Assembly: GCA_008632985.1 (NCBI GenBank)
Contig: QPGO01000161.1
Coordinates: forward strand, 1-64,000
DNA length: 64,000 nt
Direction: 5' to 3'
DNA from: Psammoneis japonica
Lineage: Eukaryota
In this document: piece by piece, positions 9,946 to 63,089 of the stretch
Numbering within the stretch: the first letter of the stretch is position 1
Layout of the letters: every line of letters starts with the position of its first letter
The notes under the pieces: generated by a model
Databases searched by the model: none
What the model saw: the letters and a program-made list of their open reading frames with translations, nothing else
Told to the model about the DNA's origin: nothing
Position numbers and translations under genes: made by a program

Positions 9946-9949
9946 CCAA

Positions 9950-20760: not shown

Positions 20761-21154
20761 GCCCCATGAGAGACCGTAGTATCTTTTTGGAGAGTCTCGA
20801 AAGGAACAGCACTTACCATGGGTTTGTAATTTACGAGATCAAGGTTCGTGATCTCATTCACAAAACATAATATCAGGCGGGAATTTGGGGTGTATCATAA
20901 AAAATGCGACACACATATATTAATATATATATACAAAGAGAAAGCAAGGGGGTTTATCTAAAGAAGTTAAATACAAATATGAAAATATTCAAATATATTG
21001 TATTCAGTGTTGTATTACCAGACGTACGGAAACTCCCGCTTGCTCCCGCTCACAAATTGGCGAGGGCGTCGAGAGAGCTTTTCACAGCGCAGCACAACAA
21101 TGTCATAAAAAATAAAGACGCATCATAAACTGACTGGCAGATACGAACATAACA

Positions 21155-39361: not shown

Positions 39362-39519
39362 GATAGCAAAGGGAGTGCTTTTCTTTTTTCTATTGACAAA
39401 TCGGTTGTGCTCATGGCGTTTGTTTGACTTTTGTTCTTGTGTTCTCATCGAACTGATGTCTCGAAGAAATGAAACATACAAACACGACGTAAATCATTGA
39501 AATTTTCCAAAAAAAACTC

Positions 39520-40861
39520 TCACGAGGGGGCACGGTCGGTCAGACCAGGGATTTTGTTCGAGCGCGCGCACCGCGCCGCAGAGCGATGCGCGTGTTGGTT
39601 CGCCTCTTGAGAACTGAGCATGCGACAGCTCTGTTCACAGCACAGAGCAATGGTTTCCTGAGCATGACACACACTTTCATCACCTCTGGAGATCAAGAAG
39701 AGCAACTTTGGCATTGTTGCTTGAAGAGATTTGACACAATGTGATGGTGTGGCTCGAGGGGGCACACTGCCAAGTGTGCTGCCATCCTGGGTTTGAGAAA
39801 CTTTTGAACACATCACGAGGTTTTCCACATGTTTCTAAGTGACACATGCACCCAGCACCAAATCCATGTAAAAAAATCAAGCTCCACAGCAAAGACACAT
39901 TTTTTCACATCTCGAGCCACACCAATCATGTGCACCAAAAATGTGGCACACACCCTGCTGCGGCCATGCACTCGCCCCAACGGCCATTGTGTCTGAGAAG
40001 GTGAGAATGCCAAGACAGGTCAACAAGACTGTGCTCAGTGCAATGATGTGGATGAAATTTTTATTTTTTCCATTTGTTGCACCTTGTGGATGGCCTTTTG
40101 ACTCCCCTTGATGTTTCAGACTTCTCTTTTTCTCTTCTCTTTCTCAGATTGCAGGAGCACAGGGAGCCTCCACAGCTCTGGACTCTGTTGACTTGGTGCT
40201 TGCCACAAACAACAATGTGCATCTTCACGGTGCATTGGTTTGTTTCTTGTGATGCATTGAGTGCTCTTCAAGTCATCGTGGATGATGCTTTTGGGTCAAG
40301 AAAAAACACCAAATTTTGGTGCTCACAAAAGAATGACCTGCACTCAGTTTTTTAGGGTTCGAGGCAGTTAAGAAGCCTTTGGACAAGTCTGATGGGTGCA
40401 ATGTTGCAAAGTGGAACAAAAAACATTGTTCAAGATAAAACTGGTTCTTTTGAGCATTGAAATGTTGTCAACATTTTGCTGTCTCATCTCTGCTTCTGTG
40501 TTTCAAATGACCAAATTGCCCCACATTCATCAAACATCGACTCTGCCAATTCAGTGCCAGCGTGCAACTGACTCAAGAGTCCCACAAAAGTCAACAAATC
40601 AATTGATCTTTGAAGCAGTTGATTGCACAAAAAATGCACGATGCATGTGCCAAGCCAGGTTCACCGATTTTTCTTGTAAAAAAAAAGGAGTTGGGGTGCC
40701 TTTTTTTTGGCACAAACTCTTTGCACAATGAAAAATGCACAATTCTTTCAAAATGGTCAGATGCAATGAAAAAAAAAACAGCAGAACAGTCTTTCAAATG
40801 TGCCTGAAAATGAAGAGGAAGAGAGCCATCTTGGTTCAAGTTGTGGTTGTTCAATGACAGT

Positions 40862-40896
<35 letters not shown>

Positions 40897-43800
40897 CATG
40901 GCTGGAGCACCAACAACAAGACATGCAGAAAGCTCATGCACTGGGGCTGAAAAAGTGATGGCAAGGAATGAAGATCATTGAAAGCCCATGCACTGGAGCT
41001 GAAAAAAGTGTCGGTGATGAGTGAAGATCATTGGTTGTTGGCATTGCATGCTTTGGCAATTTTCTTCACATGTGCCAAAGGTTGACAGTTTTCCAAGGCT
41101 CTGACCATTGATGATGCCAGCTTGGACATTCTCTGATTTTTTGCTGTGCTGCACAACATGTGCACAGTGCATGAGCCACCAAGAAAAGATGGCAAAAACT
41201 GTTGACTTTTGACAAGATGCTGATGAAAGCAGACAGCATTGCACCAAAGAACAGCAGTTGTTGTCACAAAACTCTCAATGTTTTGCAGCTCGACACCAAA
41301 TCTGCAGTGTCCAACCTCACTGACCTTTTTGCTCTCTGGAGCATGTGGGCCACATTTGGCAAAATGGGCCAAGAACATCTGATCTTGTGACAACCCACCT
41401 CTCTTTTCAAAGTTGGCAGATGCACCTGGATGTGCAAATCACAATCACAGCCTCACTTGGTCATCTTTCCTGTTGTCACAGGAGGTGTGGTTTCTGCGCT
41501 CACCCCAGCATGATTTTTTAAATGCACCTCAGCCTTGGAAATGACACAACAGCCAAAGCCATCAGCACCTGCCTCTGCAGGCATTGCTCTGGCAGCCCTG
41601 CAATTCTTGGTGGCATCTTTGACAATGCGTTTGTCATCCTCCTGTCTCTTCATCTCCCCAGGACACCAGCTGTGGGCAACTCAGCATTTGTTTGTTTTTG
41701 CCATGTGTGCTGATGAAGCCAACTGCATGTCCTTTTGCAGCAATGTGATGTTTTGTGAAGGCAGCAATCCAGGTGCACCAGCAGAAAATCTTGGGGCAAC
41801 TGCTTGACACTGCAGACAAAGTTGAGCAAAGCAGCTGATGGGTTTTCAGAGAATGACAGCCTCTCAGTTGCAGACGCAATGGCACTCTGCCACTTTTGCC
41901 ACACGCTCATCTGTTTTGCCAAGCTGCTGTTGACACCAACACATTTGAAAGCAACGCCACAGTCCATGCTGGTTGGCACCCTCACATTTCTTGTTGTCAG
42001 CCCCCCCTCCACAAACTCCTGGCAGGTGAGTTCTTCTGAAGTTGTGGCCAAACCCTTTGCTCCAAGTTGCGGCGCCATGTCTTGTTTCTCTGCTGTCAGG
42101 CAATGCCACAAATGTGAGCCTTTTTTTGGCCTTGTTTTTGTTCTGCTCTCCAGTCATTTTGCAATCAATTCAGGCCACAACACAACCTCCATCTGCAAAT
42201 CTCTCAAGAAATGAGTGCACACCGTGTCCTCTGACACACAAGAAAAAGGACAAAGCACAGTCTTGCAACCCCCCCCCCCCCTCCTCCCAATGACTGGGGA
42301 TGGGAGGGGGTTTGTTGGCCTAAAGAAAATGTTTGTGTTCAATCTCAGAGCAACAACAATGGCCTGTCATGACAACAGAAGATGGCATTGTGCAGCATCA
42401 TGGTGACACACTGACAGGGTGGTGACACAGGGGTGGGTGCCCCTTGCCCCCAAACATGTGTTGCCTCCTGCTTGGTGCACTCCAGAGTTGGGGATCAGAG
42501 CAAACAACCTGCTGTTTGAGTGACTTTGGCTGAAATTTGCAATGCATGATGTGCTCCTGACTCCATGCTGGTGCCTTCTGAGCTGAGTGCAGCATGACCA
42601 AGCTTGGTCATCAAGCCACTTGAGGCATGCCACATCCTCACCCACCCACCCAGCATTTGCTTGGAAGATGTGCTTCAATGCACTCTTCATCTGGCTCAAC
42701 ACGCAAACACAAAAAGTTCTTGTGATCTTGCAGATGACTTCACAGTGCATGTCAAGGCACAAAGTTGCCAACCTTGCCAAAATTTTCTTGACCTTGAGTC
42801 CAGTCAAAGCCCAGACAAGTGCTTGAAATTGCTCAATCCATCAGCAGCAAACATTGCCTGTGATTCTTCCTGTGCACATCAATGTGTTTTCTTTCCCCAA
42901 ACCTCACATGCGGGTGTCCAAATTTGTTCTTCTGCACAGTTCACACAGCACAAATCACACAGGTCCAGATGTGGGCACTTTTTGAACACTCCTGGATGCA
43001 AGGTTAAACTTCATCACCCTGCATTGTTCCACTGGGTTCCCCACCTGATGTTGGAGTGTTTGATGCTTCATTCCACAGAGGATGGGAGAGCAGTTGATCC
43101 ACTGCTTGAAATTTAGAGCCAGCACAGCCCACAGCACTGATGTTTTCTGAGCTTGGAAGGCTGCTTCCAGATCAGGTCAAATTGTGGCTTTTCACCTGAG
43201 AAACAAATGGGACAAAAAATTCATTGCAAAACAACTTGACATTGGAAGAATCTGGATGCACAGCAGGTGAATGCTGAAAGAGCTCAAATCTCGGTCACCA
43301 AATGATGCATTTGTTTGAATCTTGAGTGTTCAACATTTCTGCATGATTCCTTTTTGCTGTGTTGATCCCTCCCCTGATTGGCACCTGTTGGGTCTTCATC
43401 AGCAATCGTCAACAAGAATGGAGAGCATGCCATGAAAAGCAAAAAATGATGTGCCAACAGTTTGAACAGCAGAAGGAAAAAGAAGCTTCAGAGCAAAGGC
43501 AACAATGCCTGGAAGCCCTCCTCTTTTTCAGTTGCCCTGCTGCTTCCACTGGTCTTGTTCAGAGGAGAGAAGGAACGGCGGTGTTGTGCATCTAGCTAGA
43601 GCTGACAATGGCTGAGCCTAAAATCTGATTGCAAAGTGACTTGATGATCAACAGAGCAGCAGCTGCATCCATGAGCATTGTGCGATGGCACTGCAAAGGT
43701 GGCAAGCAGTTTAGATGCAACCTTGGCAGCAGAGTGCGGTCCATCCAATGGGCAAACATGACCATCATTGTGCAGAGCAACAGAGTTGCCAGAAACAAAA

Positions 43801-45265
43801 AACTTTGAGGTCTGGAGCATGCTGGCTTGAATGTTGGAAGGACATTCCACCAATGAGCAGACAGCACCGGGAAACTGGCACCAACCACTGTTGATGGCTT
43901 GCTCTTGGACACCATGGCAGACATGGCAGACTTGACATTTGGCGACACAGCACCAGCAGGATCCATCTGAGTGTTTGCAACAATTGCATTTTCAGCTTGA
44001 GGCATGTGTCAGCAACACTGGAGCTTCTAACAGCAGACGTGGGAGCTGGGTTGAACTTGCACTCTGCAAACCAACTGGAACTTAGAGAAGATGTCACAGG
44101 TGAGGTGAGAAGCAAAAGAGCTGCTGCGTGTCCACTGCAGCAACTAAAAGGTGACACACCATGATTGCTCCAGTCCTTCTGCTGTGAGAAAGGTTGTCTG
44201 TACCCTTTTCAAAGCACACATGTTTCTTGGCAATGTTGAACTGAGAGGTTTCAAGATCATGCCAAAAATGACATTCTTGGTGGCATCAGATGAACACCCT
44301 CCTTGCAGCAGTTAACTTGGCACAGCAGCAGCCGGGTTCTTGGACTCAAACATGACAACCAATTTCAACCTTCCCAGTGGCTTTAGCAATGTGAGCTGCA
44401 TCTTGATCATTGCATGCAACAGATGCAGTGGAAACACCAGAAGACATGATGACAGCCAGAGTGGACAATGTGTGGACCCAATGAGGAGCCACGCGCAATG
44501 CTGCAACAAGATGTCAATCAATGCACGTCAATGAGGGGTTTGCATTCTTTCCTGCGTTGGCTTTCTTTTTGTTTGCTCTGGCAGCTTTCATTGCTCTGTG
44601 ATTTTGTGATCAATTCTTGGTGGGCCTGGCATTTTGAGGTTTGCTGCATTTTTTCCTGCAGTCTCAGAATTGGGTCGATTGTCCTTCATTCCAGTGGCAA
44701 CAGGCTTCCTGGATTCTTTGGCAGATTTGGAGCTTTTTGCAACCACTGACATCAGCAATTTCCATGTCAGATGGCTCATCTTCCAAGAGGATTGACCTTG
44801 GAAAGATCTGTGTCAGATGGCTCATCTTCCACGAGGGCTGTGGCTGGGTTCTTTGTCTTTGCCAGGGCTGATCCAGTCATCTCGCACAGGTTGTTAGAGT
44901 CATCTTGTGACTCTTCATTGCCCACAAAGTGCTCAAATTTGCCATCTTTGGGGGCTGCTTGAGTGCCAGCTGAGTCCAATGCCTTGTTGTTGTTTCGAGT
45001 TGGATGTTTTTTGTTTGCGTTTTTGAGGGAATTTGATCTCGCCTTGGGCACCCGTCTCCTTGCGAGCGGGCGGTGCACCCTTGCGTTTGGTCTTCCTGTT
45101 TGCCTGAAGAGACCCTCTTTGCACCGCCTGCGGTGAAAGCTGTTCTGTCTGTGTCCCTCCAATCAGATGCTACACGCCGTGTGCAGAGCCTCTCTAGAGT
45201 AGAGGTGCAAAGCGGCCGAAGTTATTCTTGCGAAGAGGCCCGACCGCTGCTGTGCCACGTGTGAG
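39520..45265 (-). mobile_element. Degenerate Mutator/MULE-like DNA transposon, TpA-depleted
   Basis: Minus-strand remnants resembling a MULE transposase: CSPILCG, LKWLDDQAWS..RHQHGVRSTSCIA (compare YG..TSN.AES) and a SWIM-like LTCQEF region. RING-like THCPL near 44470. Only weak terminal similarity (tctcac..ggcac..cggtc). Confidence 0.55.
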
Positions 45266-47122: not shown

Positions 47123-49614
47123 GTCCCACAACTAACCGCAAGCATGTCGCGGCTCCACATTGACAGGCAACTCATTTGGAATGCAATCAAAAGTCAATCA
47201 GCAGTCAAAAGTCAAGTCGGTGCAAGCGCTTCAACACATGGGCTAAAGTGGGTCAGGCCCGCAGCACGTCTTCGCCGCTGGAGCTGACACGTCAGAAACA
47301 GCAGAGCCAATCCCTCCCTGCCCTGGGAAGGCTCTGTGAGTAAAAAGGTGCCACCACAACAAGGGAGGGTGGGCAGGTGAAAAACAAAACAACAAGGGGC
47401 CCACCCACATTGTGGGCGATTCTCCAAAAGAGCGACAGCTCCCGGTGTGATTGGCGCAGTCTTTGTGCTCTCATTCTTCCTGCATTTTTTGGTGAGGTGA
47501 ACAATGGACCATTGGACCATTCAATGCAATGCCTCTGCCCCTGTTGACATCATTGGAGTGTTTCTGATGTCACTCTTTCTGAGCCCTTGCTCGCTCATCT
47601 CCACCTCAATCGGGGACAGAGCACACACATGACCAGACAGGGTGGGGAATGGGGCTGCTGGGTCTCATGGCAGGCCAAGTTAAAGACCATGGAAGTTGGT
47701 TGATTTCCTTGCCAAAACTTTGTGTGATGGTTGAATTTTGCACTTGTGAAAGGTGCAAGGTGCAAGGTGCACAAGGCAAAGCTCTTGCTCAACTGACAAC
47801 CCACCTTGCAAACTCCAATTGTGGAATTCCCAACAGCTTTTGTTGCTGAAAAATGCCATTGCTTTCCAACCCATGACCCTTTGTGCACCCCAGCCCAGGT
47901 GGTTCCACACCCCCAAATTGCCTTGAAAGGTCTTCTTGTGGCTGTTTGCCTTTGACAAAATGACTTTTGCACAGCGCAAAATGGTGTGTTCATCAACCCA
48001 TTCTCTCCAATCTCATTTCACTTGCAACTGGGCAATGGTCTGTTTTGGGCCTTGCACTCTTTTTTTGTTTTGTGTTTGACTCAGCTGTTCTTGTGATGGA
48101 CAAAGTGCCCTCTGTCCACTGTGGCAACCTGAGACACTCAGCAAGAATTTCACAATTGCAGGCTGGCAGAAAAAGAGTGCAAAAAAATCCATCAGCACCA
48201 ACAACTGAGCCTCAGCTCACTCACAATTTGCCACCAAGGACCGTTTCTTTTCTGTTGCCATGTGCATTTCCTCTGTTGTGTCGAGCGATGCAAGTGTGTC
48301 AGTTGATTGTGCCAACAAATGGTGAAAAAGGGTCCAAAGTTAATGCCATTGCTTGGGCTGCACTTCACTTCTGCTCACATCTTCTGAAACTTGTCAATCA
48401 ATGAATGTTTCATCAAGTCTGTGAGAGCAACTTGGCGACACGTGCTGCCAAGAGGGGCAATGGTCAAGTCTGTGAGAGCAACTTGCACTCATGCACATTG
48501 ACAAAAGATCATTTGTGTTGCACTCAAGAACAAATTTATGTACAAGAACATTGGTTTAATGGTTTCTTTGCACATGAGTGCATTTGTGAACAATCGCTCA
48601 TTGGAAAACAGAGGTTTCATCTTGTGGCACAATTTGGTGGTCAACAACTTGGTCCATCCTCAGATTTGGATGCATGGGCACATGCACAAGACCTTTCTGC
48701 ATGTGCCCATGACAACACATTTGAAAGTCATTGTGTTTCAATTGTTCCAGAAGTTTGGACTGTGCTTTTCATGCAAAAGGGGGCATTTTTTAGTGTGCGC
48801 ACACATCTGAGTCTGGAGCAAATCCTCATTTGTCTGTTTGTGCCCATCAATTTGTGTGGTGTGTGGTGTGTGGTGTGCACAATCTGCACAAAACCACCAG
48901 CACCAAACAGCTCACATGCACTTCCTCACAAAGATGTTTCTTCCACACAGAAAAGTGCCAGGCTTTTTGCCCACCATCACATGTGGAGTTCCAAGTCACA
49001 AACAGCAATCTGTGGGTAAAACCTGGTCTACAATCTCTGTCCTTTTGACAATGGAGTGCAACACAGTGAAGTGCAAAGGGCACCATGGCAGTCTTTGGGT
49101 GCCATCATCTCAAAATCCGGTGGGGGGGGGGGGGGGGGAGGGCACGACATTTTTGATGCATTCCAGCCCCAGGTGGGAGCTCAAAGTGCTGGAGTGTGAC
49201 ACAATCATTTTCATTGTGCACTGCTCTTTCACAGAATTGCCCCACCACACTCCCTGTTTTGTGAAGCCCAAGACTTTTCACTCAGCACACTGCACACTTG
49301 CGGGGGCAACAGCACACATGGGCATGCACTTTTCACCAATGTCTGAAGAGTGTGCTGGGGCAAACAAAAAACAGTGCACTTTAATCATGGATGAGTTTGT
49401 GTGGCAAAATTGCCTCTTTTCTGTTGGCGATCATTGGCACATTCTCATCAACTGGTGACTTTGCTGTGGAGCTTGCACAAAGAATTCTGTGGGCCCAGCA
49501 GCATCACATGAGGAATCCCCACCTGCATCTGGAGCATGTGTTTGACTTGTCAGCCACCCTCTGTTGGATTTTGCGACAACAGCGCCCGAGACGCGTTCCA
49601 GGTCTAGGTGGGAC
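47123..49614. mobile_element. Degenerate TIR DNA transposon with GTCCCAC...GTGGGAC termini and a 4-bp TSD (CTCG)
   Basis: ctcg|gtcccac at 47119-47129 and gtgggac|ctcg at 49608-49618. Interior TpA-depleted. Superfamily not determined. Confidence 0.65.
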
Positions 49615-49954: not shown

Positions 49955-49992
49955 GTCCCACCTAGGGCTGGAACGCGTCNTTCTCATGTGGG
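49955..49992. mobile_element. Ends of a second, inverted copy of the same TIR family collapsed around an N
   Basis: gtcccacctagggctggaacgcgtc is the reverse complement (2 mismatches) of 49590-49614. It is followed by N at 49980 and then atgtggg. cgga/cggag occurs on both flanks. Confidence 0.5.
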
Positions 49993-50406
49993 CGGAGATG
50001 ACATGACCACACGATGTGCACAGAGCATCTCAAAAATCTCTGGGATGCTCACATTGTCGCATTGTTTCTCTCAACAAAACATTGCTCTTCATCAGCATTT
50101 CTCAGCAACCTTGCTCTTGGTCAGTCGACACCACGTTGATTAAAAAAATTCAATGCAAATCAACAAAAAATTGGAAATGAAGAATGAACACATGAGATTG
50201 CGACATCGAGAAGCACAGACATCTAAAAATGACAGACTTGTTTTGACCGTGCCCGAACATTCAGAGATGCTTTTTCCATTCTTGCAAGCAACATGCGATC
50301 CGCGACTTGCGACTTCTTGTTGACCAAGCAGCAAAACGCGTCTCCTGTGATTCTGGATTCTTCCTTCAGTTTCCTTGAACAAACATTGCAGCTTGCACAT
50401 TCAACG

Positions 50407-53400
50407 ATGAAGAAGCCTGCCATTTCCTTGGCGACACTGTTGCTGTCTCTCTTCGTTGACCAGTGTGTGGGTCAAGCAGGGTCTGCTTGTGATCCTGCAG
50501 TGGGGTGCAACAACGGTCTTCAGTTTTGCGGAACAGACCCATCTTGTCGTTGGTTCTCATGCACCAACTGCTGCGAGTGCGGCCCAACCGATTTCACTGG
50601 TGATGACAGCTCAGCCCAGCTCACCTGCGCGCCTTGTGCTGGACCTGACACCTCGACTTTGGAACCGAGTTTAGGTGTGGTCAAGACGTTGGCGATGCTC
50701 CACTGACGAGGGTGGACTTCAATGAGATTTGTGCCGCCTTGACCCAATTGTTGTCTGGAATCCAAGTTTTCCAGTGCCTCGCACGCGCCAGTGGCACAGA
50801 CTTTTTGGCATTTGTGGCTGAAACACTGGCATTGAACCAAAGCAATCCTTGTGATGAGGGCATTAACTTCTGCTCATGCAGGACCCGTGCCGCTGCCCCT
50901 GGCACTGGGCATCTCACAACCGGAAATCAGCACTTCAACTTCGATGAAACCTTTCCTCCACACTGCATTGACGCAACGCTCTCTGCACAGGCTCCTCGCA
51001 TCACCTCTCCCGCTCCCGGTGACTGTGCCAGCGACAACGACTGTGCCGGTGGATTTGAGTTTTGCGGTGCAGACAAGGCTTGCCATGCTCACTTGTGCAC
51101 CAAGTGGCATGAGCATGGCCACACTGACTTTGCGAGCAACGATGGTGCCGCCAAGCTTTCTTGCACAGAGCTTGCCAGAACAGCACAGAACATTGCTGGT
51201 GTTTCATTCAGGTGCGACAACCCAACATCCACCGATGCAGTTCGTGCGGCCTTTGATCACAACTGCACTGCCACGATGTTGATTTCATCCTTTGAGTGCT
51301 GGGACTGCTTCGAGGGCTGTGACTTTGCCAATTTTGTCAATGAAGCTGGGTTGTCCAGTGTCCAGTGCCAAAATGCTTCTGACACTCCAAGGTGCTGCCA
51401 TGACCTTGTCGCCCAGCAAGGTGCAGCAGGTGCTGTCATTGGGGCGTTTGGTGCTTCAATCGCGTTTAACCAAGAGTTCACCAAGAGGACACTGTCGTCA
51501 ATTGTCGCCGTAAATGGGAGACCTGCTGGGTCTCCCACCCCTGTGGCAACACCTCCTCCGACACCGCTGACAGCCAAGCCATCCACCGGCAGTCCTTCAC
51601 TCACTGCTTCACCCATTTCTTCACCCGCTCCACTTCCCACCCCTGTGGCAACACCTCCTCCGACACTGCTGACAGCCAAGCCATCCACACTGCTGCTGAC
51701 TCCTGAGACCCGCCCCCAAAACGATGACTGCGAAACTGCGACAGTTGTTGAGGAGGAGTTTCTGTTGCTGTTTGAGATAAAAATGTCACAGGGTTTGAGA
51801 GAGAGAGGTGTCCCTCTTTTTTTTTTTCTTCGACAACAACCATCCGGGTTCCTCTCAGTGGTCACGTAGAATCGCACACAAAATGAGCACTAGAATTTGA
51901 GGTGCAGCCACCACAAGATCAAAAACAATGGCAATGAAGCCGGTCCGTTTGTTTGCATTTTCATCACATTGCTCTCTCCAGCGGGGCTTGCTTTTGGAAA
52001 GGCATCCCGAACGACTCAAAGTGATGCTGCAGTGCATTGTTGATCACGTTCAACTGGTGGCAGGCACGGCAAGCCTTGCCGCCGCCGTGCTGAGACTGCT
52101 GAGACAGGGGGTGCAAGGACATTTCGCACTGGCAGTGAACGTCAACTCCAATGTTGGCACAAGCACCATCTCTTTTATGGAGAACTGCCATTCGACACCA
52201 GTCAAAAAAATGCTTTTTGTGCGTGAAGCACACCTTCGTCGCCATGGAGAACTTGAGGGCAGTCAGGCGGATTGGCAAGACTTGCATTGTGGGGAGTTGG
52301 CCTGCCGGCATGCCCACTGCAGCAGCGAAGCGGTGTCGAGAAGGTGGGGTGCCGGGGATGAAGAATTAGAGTGTTCAAGGTTGGTGGTTGGGGTGTCATC
52401 TGAGTGGCACTGTGTTGTCTCGAGTCAATGTCCAATCTCGAGTGGTGTCTTCTCGAGCAGTGAACATCGCATCTCGAGTGGTGTCGTCTCGAGCAACAAA
52501 TGTTGTCTCGAGTGCCATCATCTCAAGCATCATACGGCAGTAAATGCTGCACAACACAGTCTCAAGTGGCATCATCTAGCTGCTGCAGGGCCCCAGTCTC
52601 GAGTGGCATCATCTCGAGCCAGCAAATGTTTGGTCTCGAGCAGCATCTAGCGTGCCCAGCAATGCAACAGTTGCCCTAAAGCATGTCTTCTTGTCCTGCA
52701 CATGGTGCTTCTTCAGTTTAGCATGTGTTGCAGCATGTTTGATTGTGTCATGAAAAAACCTTGTCAACGTGAAAATCTCCGTTTTCCTCGTCGTTGTCAC
52801 CTCATCGCGATCCGAGTGCGAGAGTTGCGACACATCCTCCTCCCTGCTCTGCATTGCAAAATGAACAGGTCGAAGGCAAGTGCAAGCAATTGGTGTAGAA
52901 CAAATGGAGAGAATTTTGGTTCGCACTCACCAATCCGTTTGACATGGAATGGGAGAGATCACACTCTACTTCGCAAATTGGAGTTGTCTTTGAGGTGACA
53001 CGAACAGAGCAGTTTGGGTCCTTCTGAGCTGGCTCCAAGAAAGATGTCAAAAGCTCCTGTGGCATTTCTGGTGCAACTGAAGCTTTCAGTAGATTAGAGT
53101 GGGCTTTGGTTTGTTCTATGATCCCTTTTTGCTTCAGAACAAACACGGTTTTGTCGAAGTGAATGAGAAGTTTCGCAGGTTGCGACCCCTCGGTTTCTCG
53201 CGGGTTTCTGAGCCCTCTTCAGAATCACACGAGCCCAGATTGATGGCAGAACACTTCATACTTCGACTAGATGTACGATCATTGTGTTCGGGTTGGTTAG
53301 TTGCGTGCCGCTTGGCGGCGGAGCAGCGGCGGTCCTCATGGTTGACATCGGTGTGTTTTGATGGTTGCATCAATTCTACTAGCACTTATTTTGTGTACGA

Positions 53401-54680
53401 TTCTACGTGACTACTGAGAGGAACCCGGAAGGTTGTTGTCGAAGGCAAAAAAAAAAAAAGGACACCTCTCTCTCTCGAACCCTTTGACATTTTTACCTCA
53501 AACAGCAATAAATGAAAGTACGGAGGGCGCGTCCGACGAAATTGACGCCACTTCCCTACAATGTATCGGCGTGAGTGTAACGGCACCTGGCGTGTGGTAC
53601 ACAGTGACGGGATCAGGAACGATGATGGAAGCAGATACTTGCACCAGCCAAACGGCACTTGATACAAAGATTGCAGTGTTTGAGTCATCTTGTTCAAGTT
53701 TGAAATGTGTTATTGCTAATGACGATGAGTGTGGAAAAGGGAGCTCGGTATCATGGATTTCTAAGCTTGGCGTTGAATACAAAATTCTTGTTTCAGGATC
53801 TCAAGGAACAGGTGATTTTTCGTTGCGGGTGGCAGAAGCAACATCCGTACGCACAGGATCCTGTCAAGATATACACAAGTCTAAAGCTCTGATTGATCAT
53901 CGGTGTTGCGAAGGCAGCAACTGCAGAAACGTCACGTTTTGCTTTGGCATGATGCTGGCTCACCCAAAAGCTGTCCTATCGGGGTGCTGCGAGTCCTATG
54001 ACGGATGTCGTCAGACGAAACACTTTCTTCGCACACTTGATCAGCTACGAAAGCTTTCAACGGCCACCTTCGTAATTTCTTGTGTCGTCATTTTCTTTGT
54101 TCTAGCCAAGGTGATTATTGTCCTGATGAGCATTAAGAAGTGGATGTGTTCTTGTCGGCAATTGCGCATGCCGTGTAACATATCGACGGCAACATACTAC
54201 CTGACTACGAACAGTCTCATTGTTTTTTTTGAAATTGCCGATCTTTGTCTCAATGCTTCAATCATTGCCATCATGAGTAACCGCAGCCCACAAGACAAAG
54301 CTCAAGCAATCATAGACAACGAGTGCTTTGTACTGCAAAGAAATGCCCAAACAATCGCGGATCTAATCAATGCGTTAGAACCCTTTGAAAGGATTGCAAT
54401 CGCAGAGTTAGTTCTGGACATTTTGGTTATCATACTTCATGCGGTTGAACTTTGGAAAGGGATCCCTGCTGGTGTCAGCGATAGATTCGTTATGGCAGCT
54501 GCATCCATTCTTGATGCTGCCGAGCTTGTACTGGCTGCAGTCAACCTTTACGTGGTTTTGATTCCTGCAATAGAGGGTTTTGAAGAGCTTTTCGACAGCC
54601 TGGGCATTGATCCCATCACTCAAAGCCTATCAGTCCTTGTACCCTGTGTGTTTGCGTGTTGCGGCATCACTTTGCTATAA
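50407..54680 (+). pseudogene. Secreted/membrane protein gene (two Cys-rich repeats, PT linker, PPC-like beta-sandwich, C-terminal TM helices) split by a transposon; 5' half hypermutated
   Basis: Signal peptide MKKPAISLATLLLSLFVDQCVG. Removing 51765-53510 restores the frame: NDDCETATVVEEEFL|NESTEGASDEIDATSLQCIGVSVTAPGVWYTVTG...DTKIAVF..CVIANDDECG..SSVSW. Frameshift near 50670. Confidence 0.85.
51765..53508. mobile_element. Non-autonomous TIR DNA transposon, TA target site (Tc1/mariner-like), about 130-bp TIRs
   Basis: 51765-51895 is the inverted copy of about 53375-53508. Right TSD is TA (53509-53510) and left TSD reads TG (51763-51764). Excision restores the host ORF. Confidence 0.85.
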
Positions 54681-55380
54681 AGCAGAGCAAGAGTTTGGAG
54701 CAAGTAAATCGAACGCCGGGCGTAAGAATTGGTTGGTGCAGTAGAAGGTATGCCGGCAAATCGAAATCAAAAATCAATGCTGTGGCGAGTTCCACATGGC
54801 CCAAATGCCAGCTTGTGATGGCGCGTACACCTCTATTTGGCTTTGTTTTCATGGAGTGTAGTCTCGATTTCTACCAGTCAATGGTAAGCTGTATTACTAT
54901 CAATCAATGTTGAACCAATGCCTGGTGGGAACCACTGTAAGACCGCCCAACCATTTGGTTTTAGCCAAGATACTTGCAAGAGATAGAATCATGGGTCCAC
55001 GGAACTAGTTGCAGTCGGGGCAACACGAGTCTGACAGAATCAATTGGGAAATCCATATCAAAGCAAACGACGAGAGCATGATCTCGATTGCAACGGGATG
55101 CATTTGCGGCAGGAGTTGGGAAAGTAAACATCGAGGGACCGCATGGGGAATCAATTCGGGGAAGCAATGCCTGCTCAACAAGAAAAAGATGAAAGCATCA
55201 TGTCGTTTGGGATGGGCTTTCAAACAAGTCTTTTCTATTAGAATTATATTGCGGCGGAAGTCGGGGATAAAAAGCGATTTTCGGGGTACAGCAGTTAAAA
55301 TTCCAATTTGTAGATTTAAAATTCAAGTTGGAATTGCTTCCGCTGGGTAAACCACGAAACACGTCTTCTGAATGCGTTTG

Positions 55381-56535
55381 CTACATTGCGTCACGAATCG
55401 AATAAAGACGTGACGCATTCCACCCGTAACCGTCTTTTCGAGCATTCATCAATTTTACGATCTTTTCCCCTTTACCGACAGCATAATTTGCATGGTAGGT
55501 AATTGGGTTATCGTTTTCCGGGTAATCATCCCGACCTATCGGATAATCGTAGCCATCCAAGCAGCAGAGGCGGGCTGTCGAATTTTTCATTTCGCCAGAG
55601 ACAGGTGAGGATTCACCAACAATACCATCAACTTCCTGTCCAGTGCAATGCGCAAAATGTTCATGCGCATTATTGTAACTCGAATGAAATGCGTTCCAAA
55701 ACAAGGCCTGATCGTCTAGTCTGTTTTTGGGTTCCTCACACCTCGCGAGCGTTTCTTCAATTACTTTTTGGAAAAAGACATTCGTATGAGACATGAAATA
55801 AAAACCTGTATTGCCTTCTCGTGGCACTCTGCCTTGTGTTAAACACGAGTGCGATCGGGGTATTTCAATGCGGTCGTTGACTTGATAAATGTAGTCATAT
55901 CGCCGTGACTGAATCAGTTTTCCAAAGTCGTGTATAAGAGGATTCTGTAGAAAGACGTTGTCACAATCAGAGAATATCACGTCGACCTTGCATTCCCGAA
56001 GTATGTGCAAGACTTGCCTCAATTTGTTACATGAGAGAGTATTGAAACCTTTCTGCCGAAAGAGTTGCTGGCCCTGTACCGCGTACCCCGGGTCTGTTGG
56101 GACGACTCTGGATTTAGTTTTGTTCTTGCTCAAGGCTCGATCAATTTCTTCGTCTAAAGCTAGAACAGCCCATTTTAGGTTGTGATTATGAGCCAAGTAC
56201 TCCCAGTTCTGTAATATATCGAGATAGTCATAGTTGGCCGCAGTCACAAGAACCGTTCTTTCCCACCCTTGTTGATGGTCGTCGTTGCGAAATACTCCTG
56301 TCGCGTCACGTATTGCCAAGGGACAATGATCATTGTTGGGGCTTACTGTCTCTTCATTTGGTTGAATGTTATTCTCGATGGATAAAGTGTCCTCCTTAAT
56401 TGGCAGTATTGACAAGTGAGTAATTTCCTTTGGCAGTGTGGACCTGAAGTATTCAAGAAGAATTGCAGCATTGTAAGCTGACAGAATAAGCGGAACCGAA
56501 AGGGATATGGTTAAACCTCGGGCAATAGTCTTCAT
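55381..56535 (-). CDS. Nucleotide-diphospho-sugar transferase (GT77-like)
   Basis: N-terminal TM helix. Motifs TAANYDYLDILQNW, DVIFSDCDNVFLQNP (DxD), NTGFYFM, DDQALF and HANYAVGKGEK. Confidence 0.85.
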   Translation of the reverse strand: MKTIARGLTISLSVPLILSAYNAAILLEYFRSTLPKEITHLSILPIKEDTLSIENNIQPNEETVSPNNDHCPLAIRDATGVFRNDDHQQGWERTVLVTAANYDYLDILQNWEYLAHNHNLKWAVLALDEEIDRALSKNKTKSRVVPTDPGYAVQGQQLFRQKGFNTLSCNKLRQVLHILRECKVDVIFSDCDNVFLQNPLIHDFGKLIQSRRYDYIYQVNDRIEIPRSHSCLTQGRVPREGNTGFYFMSHTNVFFQKVIEETLARCEEPKNRLDDQALFWNAFHSSYNNAHEHFAHCTGQEVDGIVGESSPVSGEMKNSTARLCCLDGYDYPIGRDDYPENDNPITYHANYAVGKGEKIVKLMNARKDGYGWNASRLYSIRDAM

Positions 56536-57332
56536 GGTGCTTCTGTATTACTTTTGCAGCTTGCTCTCCATTATTCATTTGTGAACTTGGCTTGTTGCCA
56601 TTCCCACTTTGCAGGTTGGACGTCTTTTTTGTGTTCTTGACGATCACCCGATTGCGTACTGTAGTTCGTTTCATTTTCAACGTTACATGACCCTTTCTTC
56701 AAGTTATAACTGCCCCGGACAACGAGAGGTCATTCTTGACATCCTTTTTAAAAATGACATTTTCTAGTAAAAAATAACAATGACTCCGCAATGGCGTCTG
56801 GGGCCGCCGCTTGTCACTTGCCAGTTGCGGCGTGCTGAAACGCGCTGCCCGTTCATTCTCAAGTGCATGAGTCGTCGAGTCGATGAAAAGAAACACACAT
56901 CACGGCAGCAACATTGTATCACACAATGGTAACCTATCCTGTGACCGGCTTCAAATTTCTGCGGCTGCACACTCGGCTGTGAAATTGAATATCCAGGTGA
57001 TCGGATAGATGGGTCTCAGCACGGTATGGTTACGAGTATCTCCCGGTCAAGTCCATTCATTTTACGGAAGTTCAAGTCAGGAACTATTGTTCAGCTCTGC
57101 AGCGTTGAGATGCCTGCTCGTTACAGAAGATGTGGCCCGCTTGCGTCGAAGCAGTACGAGGACACGACGTACGATGGGACACGACGAATGATCGATTGTT
57201 TGGTGCGTACAGTAAAAAATCTCGAAAACGCACAACAAACAGGACAACCGGCTTTCGATAAAGATTCATCTAATGATTCATGTTCAGATTCAGAAGTGTC
57301 CATTCAGTACGGACATGTCGGACTATCTCATC

Positions 57333-60300
57333 TTACGGCGTCCACCGGGGGGTTGTCTGCAGTCTCGCCCACACGAGTGGTGCTCGAAAGACGATGACAG
57401 CAACCGTGCGGTAACCGCACCTCTTCTGTCCACAGGAAGACAAGGAGACGTACACCAGCTTTGCATCATCCTTGAGCATAGCGAGTTCTTTCTTTACGGG
57501 CTTGGTCACAAGCAAGCTGTGCAATCCTGGCGTCCGGCATATTTCTTCAACTGTCTTAGTCAATGACTTCAGTGATTTTAGAAATAAAGCCCTGAGATCC
57601 CTCTGCCTTGTAGGCAAATCTAATATCATGTCTAACTGTGCGCGAACGCAGGCTCTCAACTTGATGGCAGCTTCATTCCGATCACACCATGCCTCGATCT
57701 TCATGTCGTTTGTTGGAAGAGCGGCATTCAAAAGTCTGCATGCTCCCGTGGCGAACAGAGCTGAGACAACCTTCATTCCGAGCTGTCTTTTGTGGTCAAC
57801 GTCCACTACCGTGAAGGTCAAGTACCGCAGCATGTCGTCCAGTGCACCCTGGTCGTCAACCGGTCGCTGTGCAAACAAGTTGGACAACGACAGCTTTTTG
57901 AGCCTGGCAAGAAACTGTAACGACCCATCAGACGAATTCTCCAGCTCTTTAAGGATCGAACGGAATTTCTCAGCCACAACCGTCGATACTACAGAAACAG
58001 GTTGAGGGCATTTTTGCCGAAACTGATCAAGCATTTCATCCGTGCTGACCCCGTCCGCTTTTGGAATAACAAAGTCGACCCCAGTGCTTTTCCACTCGGG
58101 TGCGAACAGGGAGAATTTCAGTTCGGGATCGAAAGACCTGTCCGTCGCAACCTGAGACAAAACTCTGGCTTCCCAGTCTTCCGTCTCACCACTCGCAACA
58201 GACTGAATGCACTTTTCGACAATCAGACTGCGGACGCCAGCAGGAATGTCTTTCTCCCATTCGGTGAGAATCAGACTAGTGGCCTCGGGGGTTTTTGCAT
58301 CAAACAACATGCGAATCACTCCCTTGTGGAGTTGAAAACCCAACCTCCTCCTTCGTGGATTTTTGAGCAAAAGCCTAACAACCGAAACCACCTTGTCCAC
58401 GTGGACGTGCTGAGCGACATAGCCCAGCAAAGCAGCCGTAATTCGCTGGTCGTTCTTTTCAATTGCCTTTTGGCTTAGAAGAAAGCCCAAGATATACCAC
58501 GGCGAGTCTAGGCTGAAGACTCGATTGATAAGAGCTTCCCGGACTGCGTTCTCGAGGCCGCTCTGCAATGCAGCCAAAACGTCGACATGCTGTGTAGAGG
58601 GCGCATCCATAAATTTACTGATGGCTTCCACCTTGGAACTGAGATCTCTTTGGCTATTCGAGGCCTCGATTCGAGCGAAATCAGCATACCTCCGACTGAC
58701 GTCAGAATGGCAACTCAATAGCGCTTCCTCGTCGATTGTGTGGTAGAGCAACTCTTCGACAGTTTTTGAATGGCAACTCGATAGCGCTTCCTCGTCGATT
58801 GTGTGGTAGAGTAACTCTTCGACAGTTTCATAGTCTTCATCGGACGTCGAGTACGAAGTTATGTGATCCTGCTGATCGGACTCCCAAAACGCGCCTTGCA
58901 AGTCATCGAAATCATGGATGCATCGAAGCAGAATATCCTGCCGCCTCGTAAAAAGAACACCACGCACGTCAGGAAGCAGCAAGGCACTTTGTGACATGTT
59001 GAGCAATTCGCGAACCATGCTGCATTTTCTCTGTATGCGATCGCTCTTCGACATTGTTAGACGCCATGTTACGGGCTCGCATCCTCCAGCATGTTGCTGG
59101 ATGAAGGCCTGAACGCGATCGTCAATCACAACATCCCAAACGCGTCGCCCACGTTCCAGATAGACTTTCCGCCAGTGTGGGAGCCACAGAAGGACTTCGC
59201 GATTCTTCTTCTTGACCACGGCGCACCTGAAAAGCTTGTCGCATGCGTCAACCAAAGAAGGAACATCAGAGGCTCCACGTCCATGAATCTTAAAGAGTAC
59301 CTGCAGAAGAAGACTCGCTTGTTCGAAATGCACGTCTGAAGCTGTGTGAATGTCGGCAAAAATGTGATCGAAACAAGTGGTCAGTAGCTCAACCTCTAGC
59401 CAGGCAGTGCCGCTGAGACGAAACAAAACCTCCAGTCGCCGGCGCAATGCAGCCGAGACATCAAGTTCCTCGGGGAAGCAACTGTCTTCCAATCGCAAAG
59501 GGGAAGACGGCATGTGATCAGTCCAGACATTATCGACTGCCTTCTCAAGTAATGCGACACACTGCATCGGACCGAACACATCATCTCGGGCAAATCCTAT
59601 TCGCAAATGATTGGAGAGATCGACTTGGCCGTCCAACTGGGAAAGCTTCTGTGCACTGGTCGGTTCGGAAGAGGGATAAGCTTTATCGAGAGCTTCCAGT
59701 GAAAACCATGATGCACTTTCCAGTTCTTTCTGTCCACCTACAAGTAGAGGCCAGGAGTAGCATCGGAGACTTTCGTCTCCACCAGATGCTGCCTTCAAAT
59801 CCCAATCTAGACGAATGGCGCAATCAATCCATTTTTGTCGGCGCTCCAAACACGGTCGGCTAGGGTCAAATCTCAGCACGAAATCAATAATACACTGAGG
59901 CAGCGTGGTACGTCTGTTTACGCAGTCGAGGCGACTCAGATCGTTCTTTTGCATGACAAGTATTGAAGAACATAGTGCCTCGTGGACACTGGCATCAGCA
60001 GAATCATCTTTGAGAGACAAAAGGACCACGTCGTATCCAAAATGGGCGTCTAGCCAAGCAAAGACAGTCCGCCGATGAATTCCGGATTCGTTCTTGAGAC
60101 GGGTTGCTGCAAACGACATGGCTTCGGCAACAAGAGAAGTACTGCCAGTCTTGCAAGCTTCTTCCAACCAGATAGTTAGAGCTTCCGCTCTTGATTCTCC
60201 ATCCGCTGCGAACGTCGCATCCTTCAACGATTGCCGGGCCTTTTCGTTAGCAAACCCGCCATGATCAATCAAAAGCGAATTTCGGACTTTCGACGGAATG

Positions 60301-62917
60301 CCTTCATTATCGAGCACCGTCTCTAATAAACCGAGACTCACAAGCTCCTTGGCGATGTAAGCGAGCTCAGACTTCCACTTATCCGGGGATTTCTCGTAAG
60401 TTGTAATGATGGTTTTCACCGAGCGTTTAATCATTGATGGCTTCTCTTCATCACGCAACCTGCTAGGAAGGTATGACGAGCACGCAGAGAGATATGATCC
60501 CACACTCGAAAGCTTCTTTTGAATGTCCCAGAGTTGTTTGGCAAGGTTCAAATCAAAATCTGGAATCTTCTTTATTTCAAACAGCAGCTTCTTCGCGAGC
60601 TCACGGCATGTTCCTACCGTGTCTTCGTGGAGGCTGAAATTAAAGTAAGCAAAATTGTGGTTGTTTGGCTGAGCTCGGTGATTCGCAATGACGAATGATT
60701 GAGAACCTTTTTGGTTCTGTGAAGCACGGCTATAGACGTCAAGCACCACCAATGCAAGAGATCTTGTAACCTCTTTGGAAAGCGTCCACTGGCCAATAAT
60801 CTGTTCCATGCTTGACTGGAAGAACGACAAAGTGCATCGGCTGATGTACGTTTCTTCAACTGGATCGAACTGCATCACTGCTCCTAGACGAGGCGATATG
60901 ATATCAGAAACGATCTGTATTGAAAGAAAATATTGCGTTAGCTAACCCATGATAATCCCGCTATGGATTCATCACCAACTTCACGAGCCTTTCTCACCTG
61001 AACTCCTTTCTGACAGAGACCCTGAACGGTCTCCAATTCTGACTTGGAGAGCTGGACATAGTCGATATTATCTTTTAGTATTTGAAGGATTGGCTGGAGA
61101 ACAGTGTCGGCTTTCAAGTGGGTTGCGACTGCTTCTACCGGTCCAACAGCAATTTTGAGTACCTCCCTAAAAAACTCGGCGTATACCTTCAACCGCGAGC
61201 TGTGAATTATCAAGGCACTGTTGACATTCTCGGTAATGCCAGAACTCACACAAGTCAAACGAGCAAAGCAATGTCGCGCAGAGTACAAGTTCGCGTAGCT
61301 CCTGTACCACATGCTCCAAACTTCACTCTTCGGTTTGCCTAGGCAGAATCGGGATAATTGCGCATCGCTCAAGTCACTTGGTTTGCACCGAAGGTGTAGA
61401 TCAGTCCACGACTTGAGGACTTGCAATATTTCAGAGCCGATTATTGCTTCATTATGAAACGAAGGATTGTCATAGAAAAAGCGAAAGAAAGGATCAACCT
61501 GGTCTCTCCTCGAGATCAGCGACCACAATTCGTCCGAGCTAGCCTTCGAAAAGACCGCTTTGTACGGGAGCTTGTAGGTGGGAAAATAGTCTTTCACAAC
61601 TCTGAACCTAGCCCAGTCACGAGCTTCAACATACTGGATCGCAAGCTGTAGTCGCTCCTTCTTTGTGAGCTTCCAAAGGAGTGCAACGTCCACCTGGTAT
61701 CGAATAACGACGTCGAAACCAGATACATCGTTACCCTTTGCCGACATGCCTTCAAGATACGCTCGAACCTCTTTGCTCGTCGAAGTAGATTCACATGCCG
61801 TGAAGTCTTCCAGAATCTTTAAAAGAGCAAAAACGTGCCTCGATTTGATGCTGTTTAACTCCATCCGCCGACGAAGGTCGTTCCACGTGGACCCAAGCTT
61901 AAGCTGGTCCTGCCCGCACTCTTCCATTCTGCGGCGAATGTAAGATATATACACATCACCATGTGATCCCCACTGTCGCAGTTTGAAGGTCTTGTCTTGG
62001 ATCAAATCATCCAATTTAGTAGCCACATAGTCGCTTGTTAGCCAGTAAATAACATGGCTTGCTGGAGATTCGGATGCTTCATAGATGCGACGAAGAAAGT
62101 CCTTGCGACGGCCACTGCGTTTGCTGGCATCAATAATCTTGCTTTGAACCGAACTTGGAGAAAGGCAGTAGTGCTCGTAAAGTTCATCGTCTGTGAATTC
62201 CGCACCGGAGAAGCAATTCACACACTGGATTATAACCTTGGCTCGGTACTTGGTGCTCCCCGTACGGAGGTAGCAGCGACTGATTTCGGCTCCTTTAGCC
62301 CCCGAGAGCGGGATAAGGACCAACACGACCTGAAAAATGTGAAATTTATTCAAGTTGAGAGGTTTGTTATTAGAAACACTTTGCTGATCGCCGCTTACGG
62401 ATGGGTTGGCAATCAAGACAAACTCGGTGTCCTCCTCCTCTTCCATAGAAGAGTCGGTATCTAAGTCATCCGGCTGAAAGCAGTATTCAAACAGGTCTTG
62501 CAAAATTACATCACGATGAGGACTCGAAGCAAGGCACTTCCGCACAACAGCATGGCGGCCCTTGAGGGGAAGTGATCCCAAAAGATCAACCAGACGTGCA
62601 AGGGGAGGCTTGGTGGAGGGCGACTGAAAGGCTTCGCAGCACCAATTCACTTCTTGCAAAAGATCTTTGTCACCGGGAAAGTCTCCAAGGATCCCGAAAG
62701 CGTTTTGGAGGCTGAAGCCTCCATAGCAACCTTGTTCTGCGAGCTCATGAGATGGCTTGCGAATGAAACAGATGTTTTTGCAACAACACTTTTTGTTGAT
62801 GTCGATGAAAGTGATGACAAGGCACAACGATGCGAACGCGTATCCAACGTGATGATTCGTGCATTCCAAAGCTTTCGATCCGCGACTTCGGAGTTGAGTG
62901 AGTCGTGCACCTTGCAC
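57333..62917 (-). CDS. Large (about 1800 aa) predicted alpha-helical protein of unknown function, two long exons
   Basis: 659-aa and 1181-aa ORFs on the same strand separated by about 60 bp (likely an intron near 60945-60918). Normal TA/CG content. Start and C-terminus uncertain. Confidence 0.65.
58705..58827 (-). repeat. 63-bp in-frame tandem duplication (TVEELLYHTIDEEAL(S/L)SCHS x2)
   Basis: gaatggcaactc..cttcgacagttt starts at 58705 and again at 58768. Confidence 0.9.
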
Positions 62918-62971
62918 GACACAGCTAAAAGTTTATGGTCATATATGCAAAAGACTGCATTCCGGCTACTC

Positions 62972-63089
62972 GGTTGTGTAGCTCAGATGGAAAGAGCGCC
63001 GTTTCTACTCAGATGATTGCTCGGACGTAGATTCCGAGTCTTGATTCTCATTTCCACGGAGGGCGCTGGTTCAAGTCCAGCCACAACTT
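62972..63089 (+). tRNA. tRNA-like Pol III locus with an intron or expanded anticodon arm; identity unresolved
   Basis: Acceptor GGTTGTG/CACAACT, D arm TAGCTCAGATGGAAAGAGC (A box), T arm GCTGG-TTCAAGT-CCAGC (B box), followed by a T run. About 45 extra nt lie within the CCGT/ACGG stem. Confidence 0.6.

Follow-up and report, generated by a model that had tools for sequence, protein, structure and literature searches.

TpA-exhausted domains with partial or near-complete CpG loss in a 64-kb stretch of Psammoneis japonica DNA suggest in-place conversion of TpA ahead of CpG decay

Here, we describe a stretch of 64,000 nucleotides (nt) from contig QPGO01000161.1 (assembly GCA_008632985.1, Psammoneis japonica; positions 1 to 64,000, hereafter the window), focusing on a segment at 50401-51760 that is nearly devoid of the dinucleotide TpA and retains part of its CpG. 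Two copies of an uncharacterised family of secreted cysteine-rich proteins are arranged in tandem in the segment, and tblastn with family members finds none elsewhere in the window. Copy 1 (50407-50831, plus strand) is matched in two frames, 50407-50682 and 50670-50831, and is associated with an open reading frame (ORF) at 50293-50706; it has a signal-peptide-like start at the ATG, and its frame is broken at around 50630-50670, where inspection of the sequence by eye revealed no convincing frame-shifting GT..AG intron. Copy 2 (50949-51869, plus strand) has a Pro/Thr-rich tail and lies within an ORF of 406 amino acids (aa) at 50649-51869, with its tblastn match at 50949-51626. Both copies are contained in a TpA-exhausted, CpG-intermediate domain of 2.8 kilobases (kb) at 50224-53050, designated D5 and delimited by TpA-free runs and a sliding scan.

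With the segment ORF, a word-index search against proteins of comparable length gave no match at E<=1e-3. HMMER, run exhaustively on 1.84 billion representative sequences, recovered 40 homologues at E<=1e-3 (best, 4.4e-12), 158-338 aa long apart from one of 883 aa, and about 30% identical. The alignment displays a layout of signal peptide, a domain rich in Cys that spans roughly 200 residues (consensus EFCGxDGxCHxYSCxNWY ... FxCY ... PxYxY), Pro/Thr-rich stretch, and hydrophobic C-terminus. Pfam annotation of 12 homologues gave a PT repeat in two, DUF11 in one, and nothing else, and none of the 10 homologue clusters examined for names carried an informative one.

The segment is 1360 nt long with a GC content of 0.55. 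An exact recount gives 4 TpA and 58 CpG, matching the initial annotation, which had reported 4 TpA and some 55-60 CpG. The observed-to-expected ratios (o/e) are 0.06 for TpA and 0.57 for CpG, alongside 133 CpA (o/e 1.58) and 146 TpG (o/e 1.77). As a null set, we used 1419 windows of equal length from DNA of normal composition in the same 64 kb. These contain 31-94 TpA (median, 56), and the segment would be expected to hold 39.6 if its TpA o/e were the normal 0.58 (Poisson P[<=4] = 7e-13). The initial annotation had regarded CpG as simply kept here, but the segment falls under all 1419 normal windows in CpG o/e (minimum, 0.67; median, 0.98), with 58 CpG present against 97.8 expected (P = 9e-6), i.e., about 40% missing. 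In addition, the 14 long ORFs in normal DNA show TpA o/e of 0.38-0.69 and CpG o/e of 0.80-1.07, and the TpA deficit of the segment is thus no codon-usage effect. Coding constraint was likewise rejected as its cause, since these ORFs keep TpA and non-coding blocks are depleted too.

D5 is one of six TpA-poor domains (D1-D6), each 1-7 kb long with sharp edges, that together occupy about 25 kb of the window and were mapped from a 1-kb profile, a list of TpA-free runs, and a 400-nt sliding scan. TpA and CpG are both nearly gone from D1 (9702-16888), D3 (39490-45171), and D4 (47341-49605), each of which is seen in all three analyses, and D1 contains the longest TpA-free run of the window (1490 nt, 14275-15765). 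D2 (23523-29629) comprises a doubly depleted core at 23850-27350 and a right part at 27350-29629 that is TpA-poor with intermediate CpG. The TpA-free runs of D5 lie at 50224-50672, 50864-51467, 51511-51778, and 51891-52176, and a cluster of repeated CTCGAG-containing units at 52400-52650 is the source of many of the CpG surviving there. D6 (63028-64000; profile and runs) is TpA-free up to the end of the window, with a CpG o/e of 0.34. Between D4 and D5 lie some 620 nt in which TpA is present, along with a single N at 49980, probably an assembly join, so that the true distance between the two domains is uncertain.

We observe that pooled composition shifts in a regular manner between three kinds of DNA. 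Normal DNA (GC 0.475) has o/e values of 0.58 for TpA, 0.96 for CpG, 1.16 for CpA, and 1.20 for TpG; the TpA-low, CpG-intermediate class (6.0 kb including D5; GC 0.502) has 0.06, 0.52, 1.72, and 1.69, respectively; and the doubly depleted cores (17.3 kb; GC 0.480) have 0.04, 0.14, 1.92, and 1.78. The sum of these four pyrimidine-purine (YpR) ratios stays at 3.90, 3.99, and 3.88 in the same order. A steady sum together with steady GC is what transitions interconverting YpR steps predict, with GC unchanged in depleted DNA since the TpA and CpG processes would offset each other. GpC is raised and ApT lowered in depleted DNA, as expected if TAC becomes TGC and TAT becomes TGT. The depletion of TpA spans non-coding DNA and all six frames, and runs tests for strand-coordinated stretches of TG versus CA gave no signal in the six domains (z -1.65 to +0.57).

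What the depleted blocks once encoded leaves little trace in our searches. Among 120 window ORFs of at least 85 aa, Pfam returned no family at E<=1e-3, and 20 long frames from D1-D4 with TGA read as X gave no match at E<=0.01, although heavy mutation could have erased the signal. The same scans found no reverse transcriptase, integrase, or protease domain in any block, and self-blastn of the window found no long terminal repeat (LTR) at any block end, the only direct repeat within the blocks being a pair internal to D2. The initial annotation had spoken of a Copia block that has lost both dinucleotides; doubly depleted blocks do exist, but their assignment to a Ty1/Copia LTR retrotransposon is not confirmed.

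Duplicated sequences show the direction of change. A tandem duplicate of normal composition (6759-9582 versus 17116-20136, 89% identical in self-comparison) served as a control and is symmetric, with TpA>TpG/CpA differences at 11/103 sites one way and 8/87 the other, and CpG>TpG/CpA differences at 16/134 and 21/145. Where this duplication runs on into the left edge of D1, four of the six TpA of the normal copy read TpG or CpA in the D1 copy, as do all six of its CpG. A second comparison is offered by an inverted repeat of about 140 nt, whose left arm (51765-51905, plus strand) lies inside D5 and is approximately 88-90% identical to the reverse complement of the right arm (53379-53520, minus strand), which lies outside the TpA-poor domain. 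Here, 4/8 TpA and 1/5 CpG of the outside arm read TpG or CpA inside D5, and the reverse is seen for 0/3 TpA and 0/4 CpG. In addition, the direct repeat within D2 (24942-25470 versus 26431-27044, 78-79% identical) displays 13 double differences of TG against CA in 521 aligned positions, compared to 4 in 2692 positions of the control duplicate, which suggests that an ancestral site was converted independently on either strand in each copy. These polarised pairs indicate that both TpA>TpG/CpA and CpG>TpG/CpA took place as mutations of the resident sequence and argue against an imported composition.

The control duplicate belongs to a gene of about 770 codons that is duplicated in tandem (6071-9815 and 17116-20760, 89% identical) and brackets D1; both duplicate ORFs carry long arrays with periods of 12/36 nt (7726-8001 and 18085-18636).

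An origin of the composition in a donor free of TpA and CpG, such as a virus or another genome, or an avoidance of TpA for functional reasons (mRNA stability, restriction-like sites), is for these reasons very improbable to us. Low TpA is indeed common in genomes and viruses, and the normal DNA of the window already stands at an o/e of 0.58. Neither version, however, accounts for the polarised in-place conversions between paralogues, for depletion that reaches non-coding DNA and every frame, for the TpA levels kept by the 14 normal ORFs, or for the loss of an invariant Tyr from a protein family in which this residue is frequent.

This last point emerges from the encoded protein. The 406-residue product of the segment contains no Tyr (0/406), versus 4.4% in its homologues, and at eight Tyr-rich alignment columns it has His three times, Cys, Trp, Phe, and Ser once each, and one gap. 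At a column where all 19 homologues having a residue carry Tyr, it has His. Replacement of Tyr by His or Cys is what conversion of TAY codons (Y, pyrimidine) to CAY or TGY predicts. The protein keeps the expected residue at each of the 11 invariant columns (Cys, Phe, Gly, Leu); their codons need neither TpA nor CpG, and their retention therefore says little on selection. By the genetic code, a change of TpA to TpG or CpA never turns a sense codon into a stop, and among the two kinds of change only CGA>TGA, through CpG decay, does so. That TpA conversion makes no stop codon explains why the 406-codon frame is still open. The doubly depleted blocks contain no stop-to-stop frame of at least 250 codons, and frames read through TGA there hold about 1.7-3.2 TGA per 100 codons.

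The arms of the inverted repeat bound a stretch of about 1.75 kb (51765-53520). Contigs of X1, an independent single-sample run of about 57-61x depth that we placed on 49981-64000, reach a summed depth of 160-300 over 51853-53724, versus 57-61 in single-copy flanks, which indicates that this stretch is multi-copy. It may represent a non-autonomous transposon whose silencing drew in the adjoining gene. One X1 contig links 51901 to 53369 on opposite strands, which may be an inversion or mere ambiguity of the assembly graph.

The relation between the two losses was examined in 128 bins of 500 nt, with CpG-low defined as o/e <0.35 and TpA-low as o/e <0.2. All 37 CpG-low bins are also TpA-low. A further 12 are TpA-low with intermediate CpG, five of them making up D5 and seven lying at block edges or in the right part of D2, and 0/128 bins combine low CpG with normal or intermediate TpA. 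At a common threshold of about 35% of normal, the TpA-poor boundary lies at or beyond the CpG-poor boundary at all eight edges of D1-D4 (offsets of 0, 100, 250, at least 1200, 400, 150, 200, and 50 nt, with an overall span of 0 to about 2250 nt). With normal DNA as the starting point, the ratio of log decay between TpA and CpG is 4.4 for the segment, a lower bound as TpA is at its floor.

These results bear on several proposals of the initial annotation. That TpA and CpG depletion are separable, with TpA ahead, is borne out by the nested bins, the edge offsets, the inverted-repeat pair, and a second locus described below. Segments with low TpA and normal CpG, which it had also envisaged, are absent from the window (0/128 bins). 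Its suggestion that the TpA:CpG ratio could date silencing does not hold, as TpA saturates too fast (o/e 0.06 in the segment and 0.04 in the blocks that look oldest); once its TpA is exhausted, a region could be dated only by the CpG left in it. Finally, a TpA process distinct from CpG decay is in part upheld, since the chemistry differs (A:T>G:C versus C:G>T:A) and lines of the chlorarachniophyte Bigelowiella natans (B. natans), discussed below, show TpA change alone, but a spatial reading of the same data stands beside it.

According to that spatial reading, the two losses follow different marks, with a wider TpA footprint and methylation confined to the repeat core, and the CpG content of the segment carries no signal of age. 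It would fit the position of the TpA-poor boundary at or outside the CpG-poor one at every edge, the seven of 12 TpA-low, CpG-intermediate bins that lie at block edges, and the nature of the segment as a host-family gene adjoining repeats. We nevertheless find it rather unlikely. CpG has been lost in the segment too, below the level of any normal window, no bin combines low TpA with normal CpG, and CpG-type differences between the window and X1 are more frequent per CpG in D5 than in its flank.

The last of these observations comes from X1. In the normal flank, two long X1 contigs differ from the window at 12 of 5371 nt and 6 of 5222 nt. Over D5, X1 is fragmented into contigs of 200-780 nt with many differences. 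Transitions account for 80 of a total of 100 differing places in X1, and 40 of 101 differing places were itemised, 35 in 50055-53379 and five in the flank. Among the 35 itemised domain differences, CpG in X1 stands against TpG or CpA in the window 11 times and the reverse occurs twice; three are TG/CA doubles, one is a CG/TA exchange, and two, located at the right-hand end of the domain, affect a TpA that is present. CpG-type differences thus number 13 itemised per 142 window CpG in the domain, compared to at most 13 of 18 differences per 559 CpG in the flank. At the differing places X1 shows only the other letter at single-copy depth, so X1 represents another lineage or allele, or else modified CpG were miscalled in the window assembly. 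Either way, CpG sites behave differently in D5 and in the flank, and this hints at, without proving, a CpG loss still running in D5. At 53883 and 56029 in the normal flank, two of the five itemised flank differences show TpA in the window and TpG in X1, a possible hint that TpA is also converted, at a low level, beyond the domains.

A second organism provides a further view of the order. For two window proteins, the top-ranking relatives that carry a name come from diatoms, namely Nitzschia, Pseudo-nitzschia, a Bacillariaceae metagenome-assembled genome, and Thalassiosira (39-43% identity) and Seminavis (38% identity), and the closest relative without a name is at 59% identity. The window thus belongs to a diatom-like stramenopile, as opposed to B. 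natans. Scanning metagenome contigs for relatives of ORF 55381-56547 yielded 67 loci (305,550 nt), two of which, L012 and L015, display TpA-poor, CA+TG-rich blocks and represent one locus in two assemblies, 97.4% identical. The blocks of L015 lie at 7501-9000 (TpA 0.05-0.16, CpG 0.29-0.54) and 12001-13165 (TpA 0.11-0.15, CpG 0.16-0.20). Among the 39 mismatches between L012 and L015, TpA in L012 corresponds to TpG or CpA in L015 nine times and never the reverse (binomial P = 0.004). Seven of these nine changes fall in CpG-normal DNA beside the block, i.e., 7/102 TpA versus 0/94 in the opposite direction, and CpG changes in the same DNA number 1/78 versus 2/79. This asymmetry suggests that TpA conversion advances into DNA with its CpG intact. 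Bin 1501-2000 of L015 has a TpA o/e of 1.15, CpG 0.32, and CA+TG 1.30; it is the single CpG-low, TpA-normal bin seen, possibly a peculiarity of composition.

Within the domains of the window, 88 TpA remain, mostly of the form YTAR (R, purine), with TTAA at 4.3x, CTAA/TTAG at 3.5x, and CTAG at 3.5x their normal share. RTAY accounts for 4/88 survivors versus 559/1406 TpA in normal DNA (Fisher P = 1e-13), and among RTAY and ATAG contexts the survivors reach 0 (ATAT), 0.09x (ATAC), 0.10x (ATAG), and 0.26x (GTAC) of the normal share. A per-strand additive model gives the order TAT > TAC > TAG ~ TAA, which suggests that TpA conversion prefers a 3' pyrimidine (5'-TAY-3'). Among the CpG that survive, those flanked by G/C are over-represented (GCGC, 2.7x). 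The tRNA adenosine deaminases TadA and ADAT act on A34, which is always preceded by U33, and early base editors derived from TadA favoured a YAC context.

Taken as a whole, the sequence data make it probable, though well short of certain, that TpA was converted in place throughout D5 with CpG decay following behind, through adenine deamination at TpA and decay of methylcytosine. Under this explanation, nearly every TpA of D5 would have become TpG or CpA by A>G change on one strand or the other, in a conversion that would have swept about 25 kb of the window in kilobase domains. A slower second process, CpG>TpG/CpA, with the signature of methylated-cytosine deamination, would be almost complete in the four largest domains and about 40% complete in the segment. 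D5 itself would result from two tandem copies of a secreted Cys-rich gene being hit beside a multi-copy repeat, with no recognisable transposon in the segment, and the change of Tyr codons to His or Cys codons would have left the frame open and the protein heavily altered. We presume that a regulated deamination of adenine at the DNA level marks silenced or repeat-associated chromatin, with an ADAT2/TadA-like protein as candidate enzyme, as proposed in the available text on B. natans. Such TpA deamination would be fast and reach somewhat past the methylated core, and CpG methylation in the same chromatin would then erode CpG more slowly.

The closest precedent is a mutation-accumulation study of B. 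natans by Mettrop et al., a bioRxiv preprint of 2026 (10.64898/2026.01.13.699255). As described in the preprint text available, 231 of 302 new mutations fell in two viral insertions, and 230 of those 231 were A/T>G/C, all on TpA, with essentially no C>T; the genome holds 324 predicted low-TpA genes and 124 clusters of TpA-poor, CpA+TpG-rich windows, and an ADAT2-like candidate deaminase is named (10.64898/2026.01.13.699255). The same text contains no mention of CpG, 5-methylcytosine (5mC), diatom, or trinucleotide, and gives no 3' context, which the supplementary site tables may hold. The window resembles this system, so far as the preprint text describes it, in the restriction of the change to TpA>TpG/CpA on both strands, in kilobase domains, in TpA-poor clusters rich in CpA and TpG, and in low-TpA genes without annotation; by the cut-offs of the preprint (rho TpA <=0.43, rho CpA+TpG >=1.52), 27 of the 64 one-kb window bins qualify. 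It differs in several respects. The nearest named protein relatives here are diatoms, in place of a chlorarachniophyte host; depletion is deeper (TpA o/e 0.04-0.06, versus 0.45 reported for the giant-virus insertion); the target includes a host-type gene; and CpG is always reduced too (among TpA-low bins, 37 low, 12 intermediate, and none normal), which may be a separate superimposed process.

A single enzyme might instead cause both losses, either as a deaminase that acts on A at TpA and less well on C at CpG, or as a 5-methylpyrimidine dioxygenase acting on thymine at TpA, with T>C arising through mispairing of 5-hydroxymethyluracil, and on 5-methylcytosine at CpG, both sites being palindromic YpR steps. 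In dinoflagellates, 5-hydroxymethyluracil replaces T preferentially at TpA. As TpA is self-complementary, A>G and T>C are indistinguishable from sequence, and the perfect nesting of the two depletions in bins and the conserved YpR total also fit one activity. The preprint further cites deamination of both A and C in DNA by ADAT2 homologues of amphioxus and Trypanosoma (10.64898/2026.01.13.699255). Several observations nonetheless make one shared enzyme decidedly improbable: within a single domain the two rates are apart by a factor of at least about four, L012 and L015 differ 9:0 in TpA while CpG stands at 1:2, strict specificity for CpG is what methylcytosine decay ordinarily leaves behind, and the B. 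natans mutations, as reported, are almost exclusively A/T>G/C (10.64898/2026.01.13.699255).

Editing of double-stranded RNA from A to I by an ADAR-like enzyme, fixed through reverse transcription of retroelements, seems to us scarcely credible. The 5' T requirement and the involvement of both strands do resemble ADAR, which prefers a 5' U and with which Mettrop et al. draw a comparison in the text available (10.64898/2026.01.13.699255). However, conversion continues past element borders into duplicated host sequence, a gene of a host family, and the DNA upstream of that gene, in L015 it extends to a neighbouring gene with normal CpG, and neither reverse transcriptase nor LTR was found in any block by Pfam or self-blastn. 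ADARs are not known outside animals. The animal ADAR and APOBEC systems are alike in that deaminating enzymes turn against selfish nucleic acids, but they act on RNA or on reverse-transcription intermediates, whereas the changes here affect resident DNA, flanks, and a host gene and are accompanied by no retroelement features that we found.

Returning to adenine deamination with methylcytosine decay, the CpG component resembles the decay of methylated repeats in vertebrates and plants, in that a CpG deficit is matched by a surplus of TpG and CpA in repeat-like blocks, and the polarised CpG changes (6/6 at the D1 edge and 1/5 in the inverted-repeat pair) are as in methylcytosine decay. Transposons are methylated in diatoms. 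Such decay cannot, in contrast, yield the complete loss of TpA, which here accompanies and precedes CpG loss. Repeat-induced point mutation (RIP) of fungi is similar as a regional transition hypermutation of repeat-associated DNA in a dinucleotide context that can leak into nearby genes, but as described in the part of the literature available to us it converts CpA to TpA and raises TpA (PMC2621366), whereas in the depleted DNA here TpA is lowered to 0.04-0.06 and CpA is increased to 1.7-1.9. A RIP-like trigger by duplication was rejected, as the 89%-identical, 2.8-kb tandem duplicate, untouched and symmetric, argues against it.

Several points weigh against the explanation we favour. The ordering relies on a single 64-kb window plus a single pair of metagenome loci. 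The X1 asymmetry of 11 versus 2 could be allelic, strain-level, or a product of base-calling error at modified CpG. The large blocks lack detectable protein homology, and their foreign or transposon nature is assumed; the targets in the window include a multi-copy element with inverted repeats and a gene of a cellular-looking secreted family. B. natans, in the text available, displays no C>T component, and the link between TpA and CpG loss is without experimental precedent. Finally, conversions at TAA/TAG make up 2/4 in the inverted-repeat pair and 4/9 between L012 and L015, and the TAY preference may be only a tendency, or some survivors may be partly newly created TpA.

A full-text literature search returned a single paper on TpA>TpG/CpA hypermutation, that on B. 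natans, with none in diatoms and none on a link to CpG loss. Relative to the literature searched, the new features are thus the occurrence in a different eukaryotic supergroup, depletion close to saturation, and coupling to CpG decay in a definite order. Going further, we tentatively consider that diatom lineages may possess a chromatin-directed DNA editing in which TpA>TpG/CpA is the fast first step of a silencing-linked defence that reaches host genes before CpG decays, a possibility we hold to be less probable than its absence. Hypermutation of TpA, if operating in a diatom-like genome, would be phylogenetically broad, and its presence in both Rhizaria and stramenopiles would point toward an old and widespread eukaryotic defence. 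Because TpA conversion makes no stops and removes TAA and TAG, it would generate recoded open frames with Tyr changed to His or Cys and could be a source of secreted Cys-rich proteins that diverge quickly, comparable to the diversification of fungal effectors by leaky RIP. It would also offer a readout of silencing from sequence, in which the state of TpA tells whether a region was silenced and the remaining CpG roughly for how long, and the TpA left at the edges of domains would be expected to act as mutation hot spots. For annotation, TGA is the only stop in TpA-free DNA, which hence shows long spurious ORFs, transposon domains become undetectable, and real genes in such domains would resemble orphan Cys/His-rich proteins.

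Contigs of another run, X2, leave 49981-52788 and 63085-64000 uncovered, which is not evidence on expression either way. One X2 contig skips 83 nt at 60915-60997, which on the minus strand read GTGAGA...ACAG, a GT..AG intron, and ORFs 57333-60941 and 60938-62932 are thus exons of one large gene. X2, although labelled "DNA?", behaves like cDNA in this respect. Elsewhere in the window, an array at 32439-32849, located within an ORF, consists of about nine 42-nt repeats that encode a repeated Pro/Ser/His-rich peptide and has normal composition, and a perfect (100%) tandem duplication of 123 nt is found at 21428-21673 within ORF 21134-21994, which shows a weak F-box-like match.

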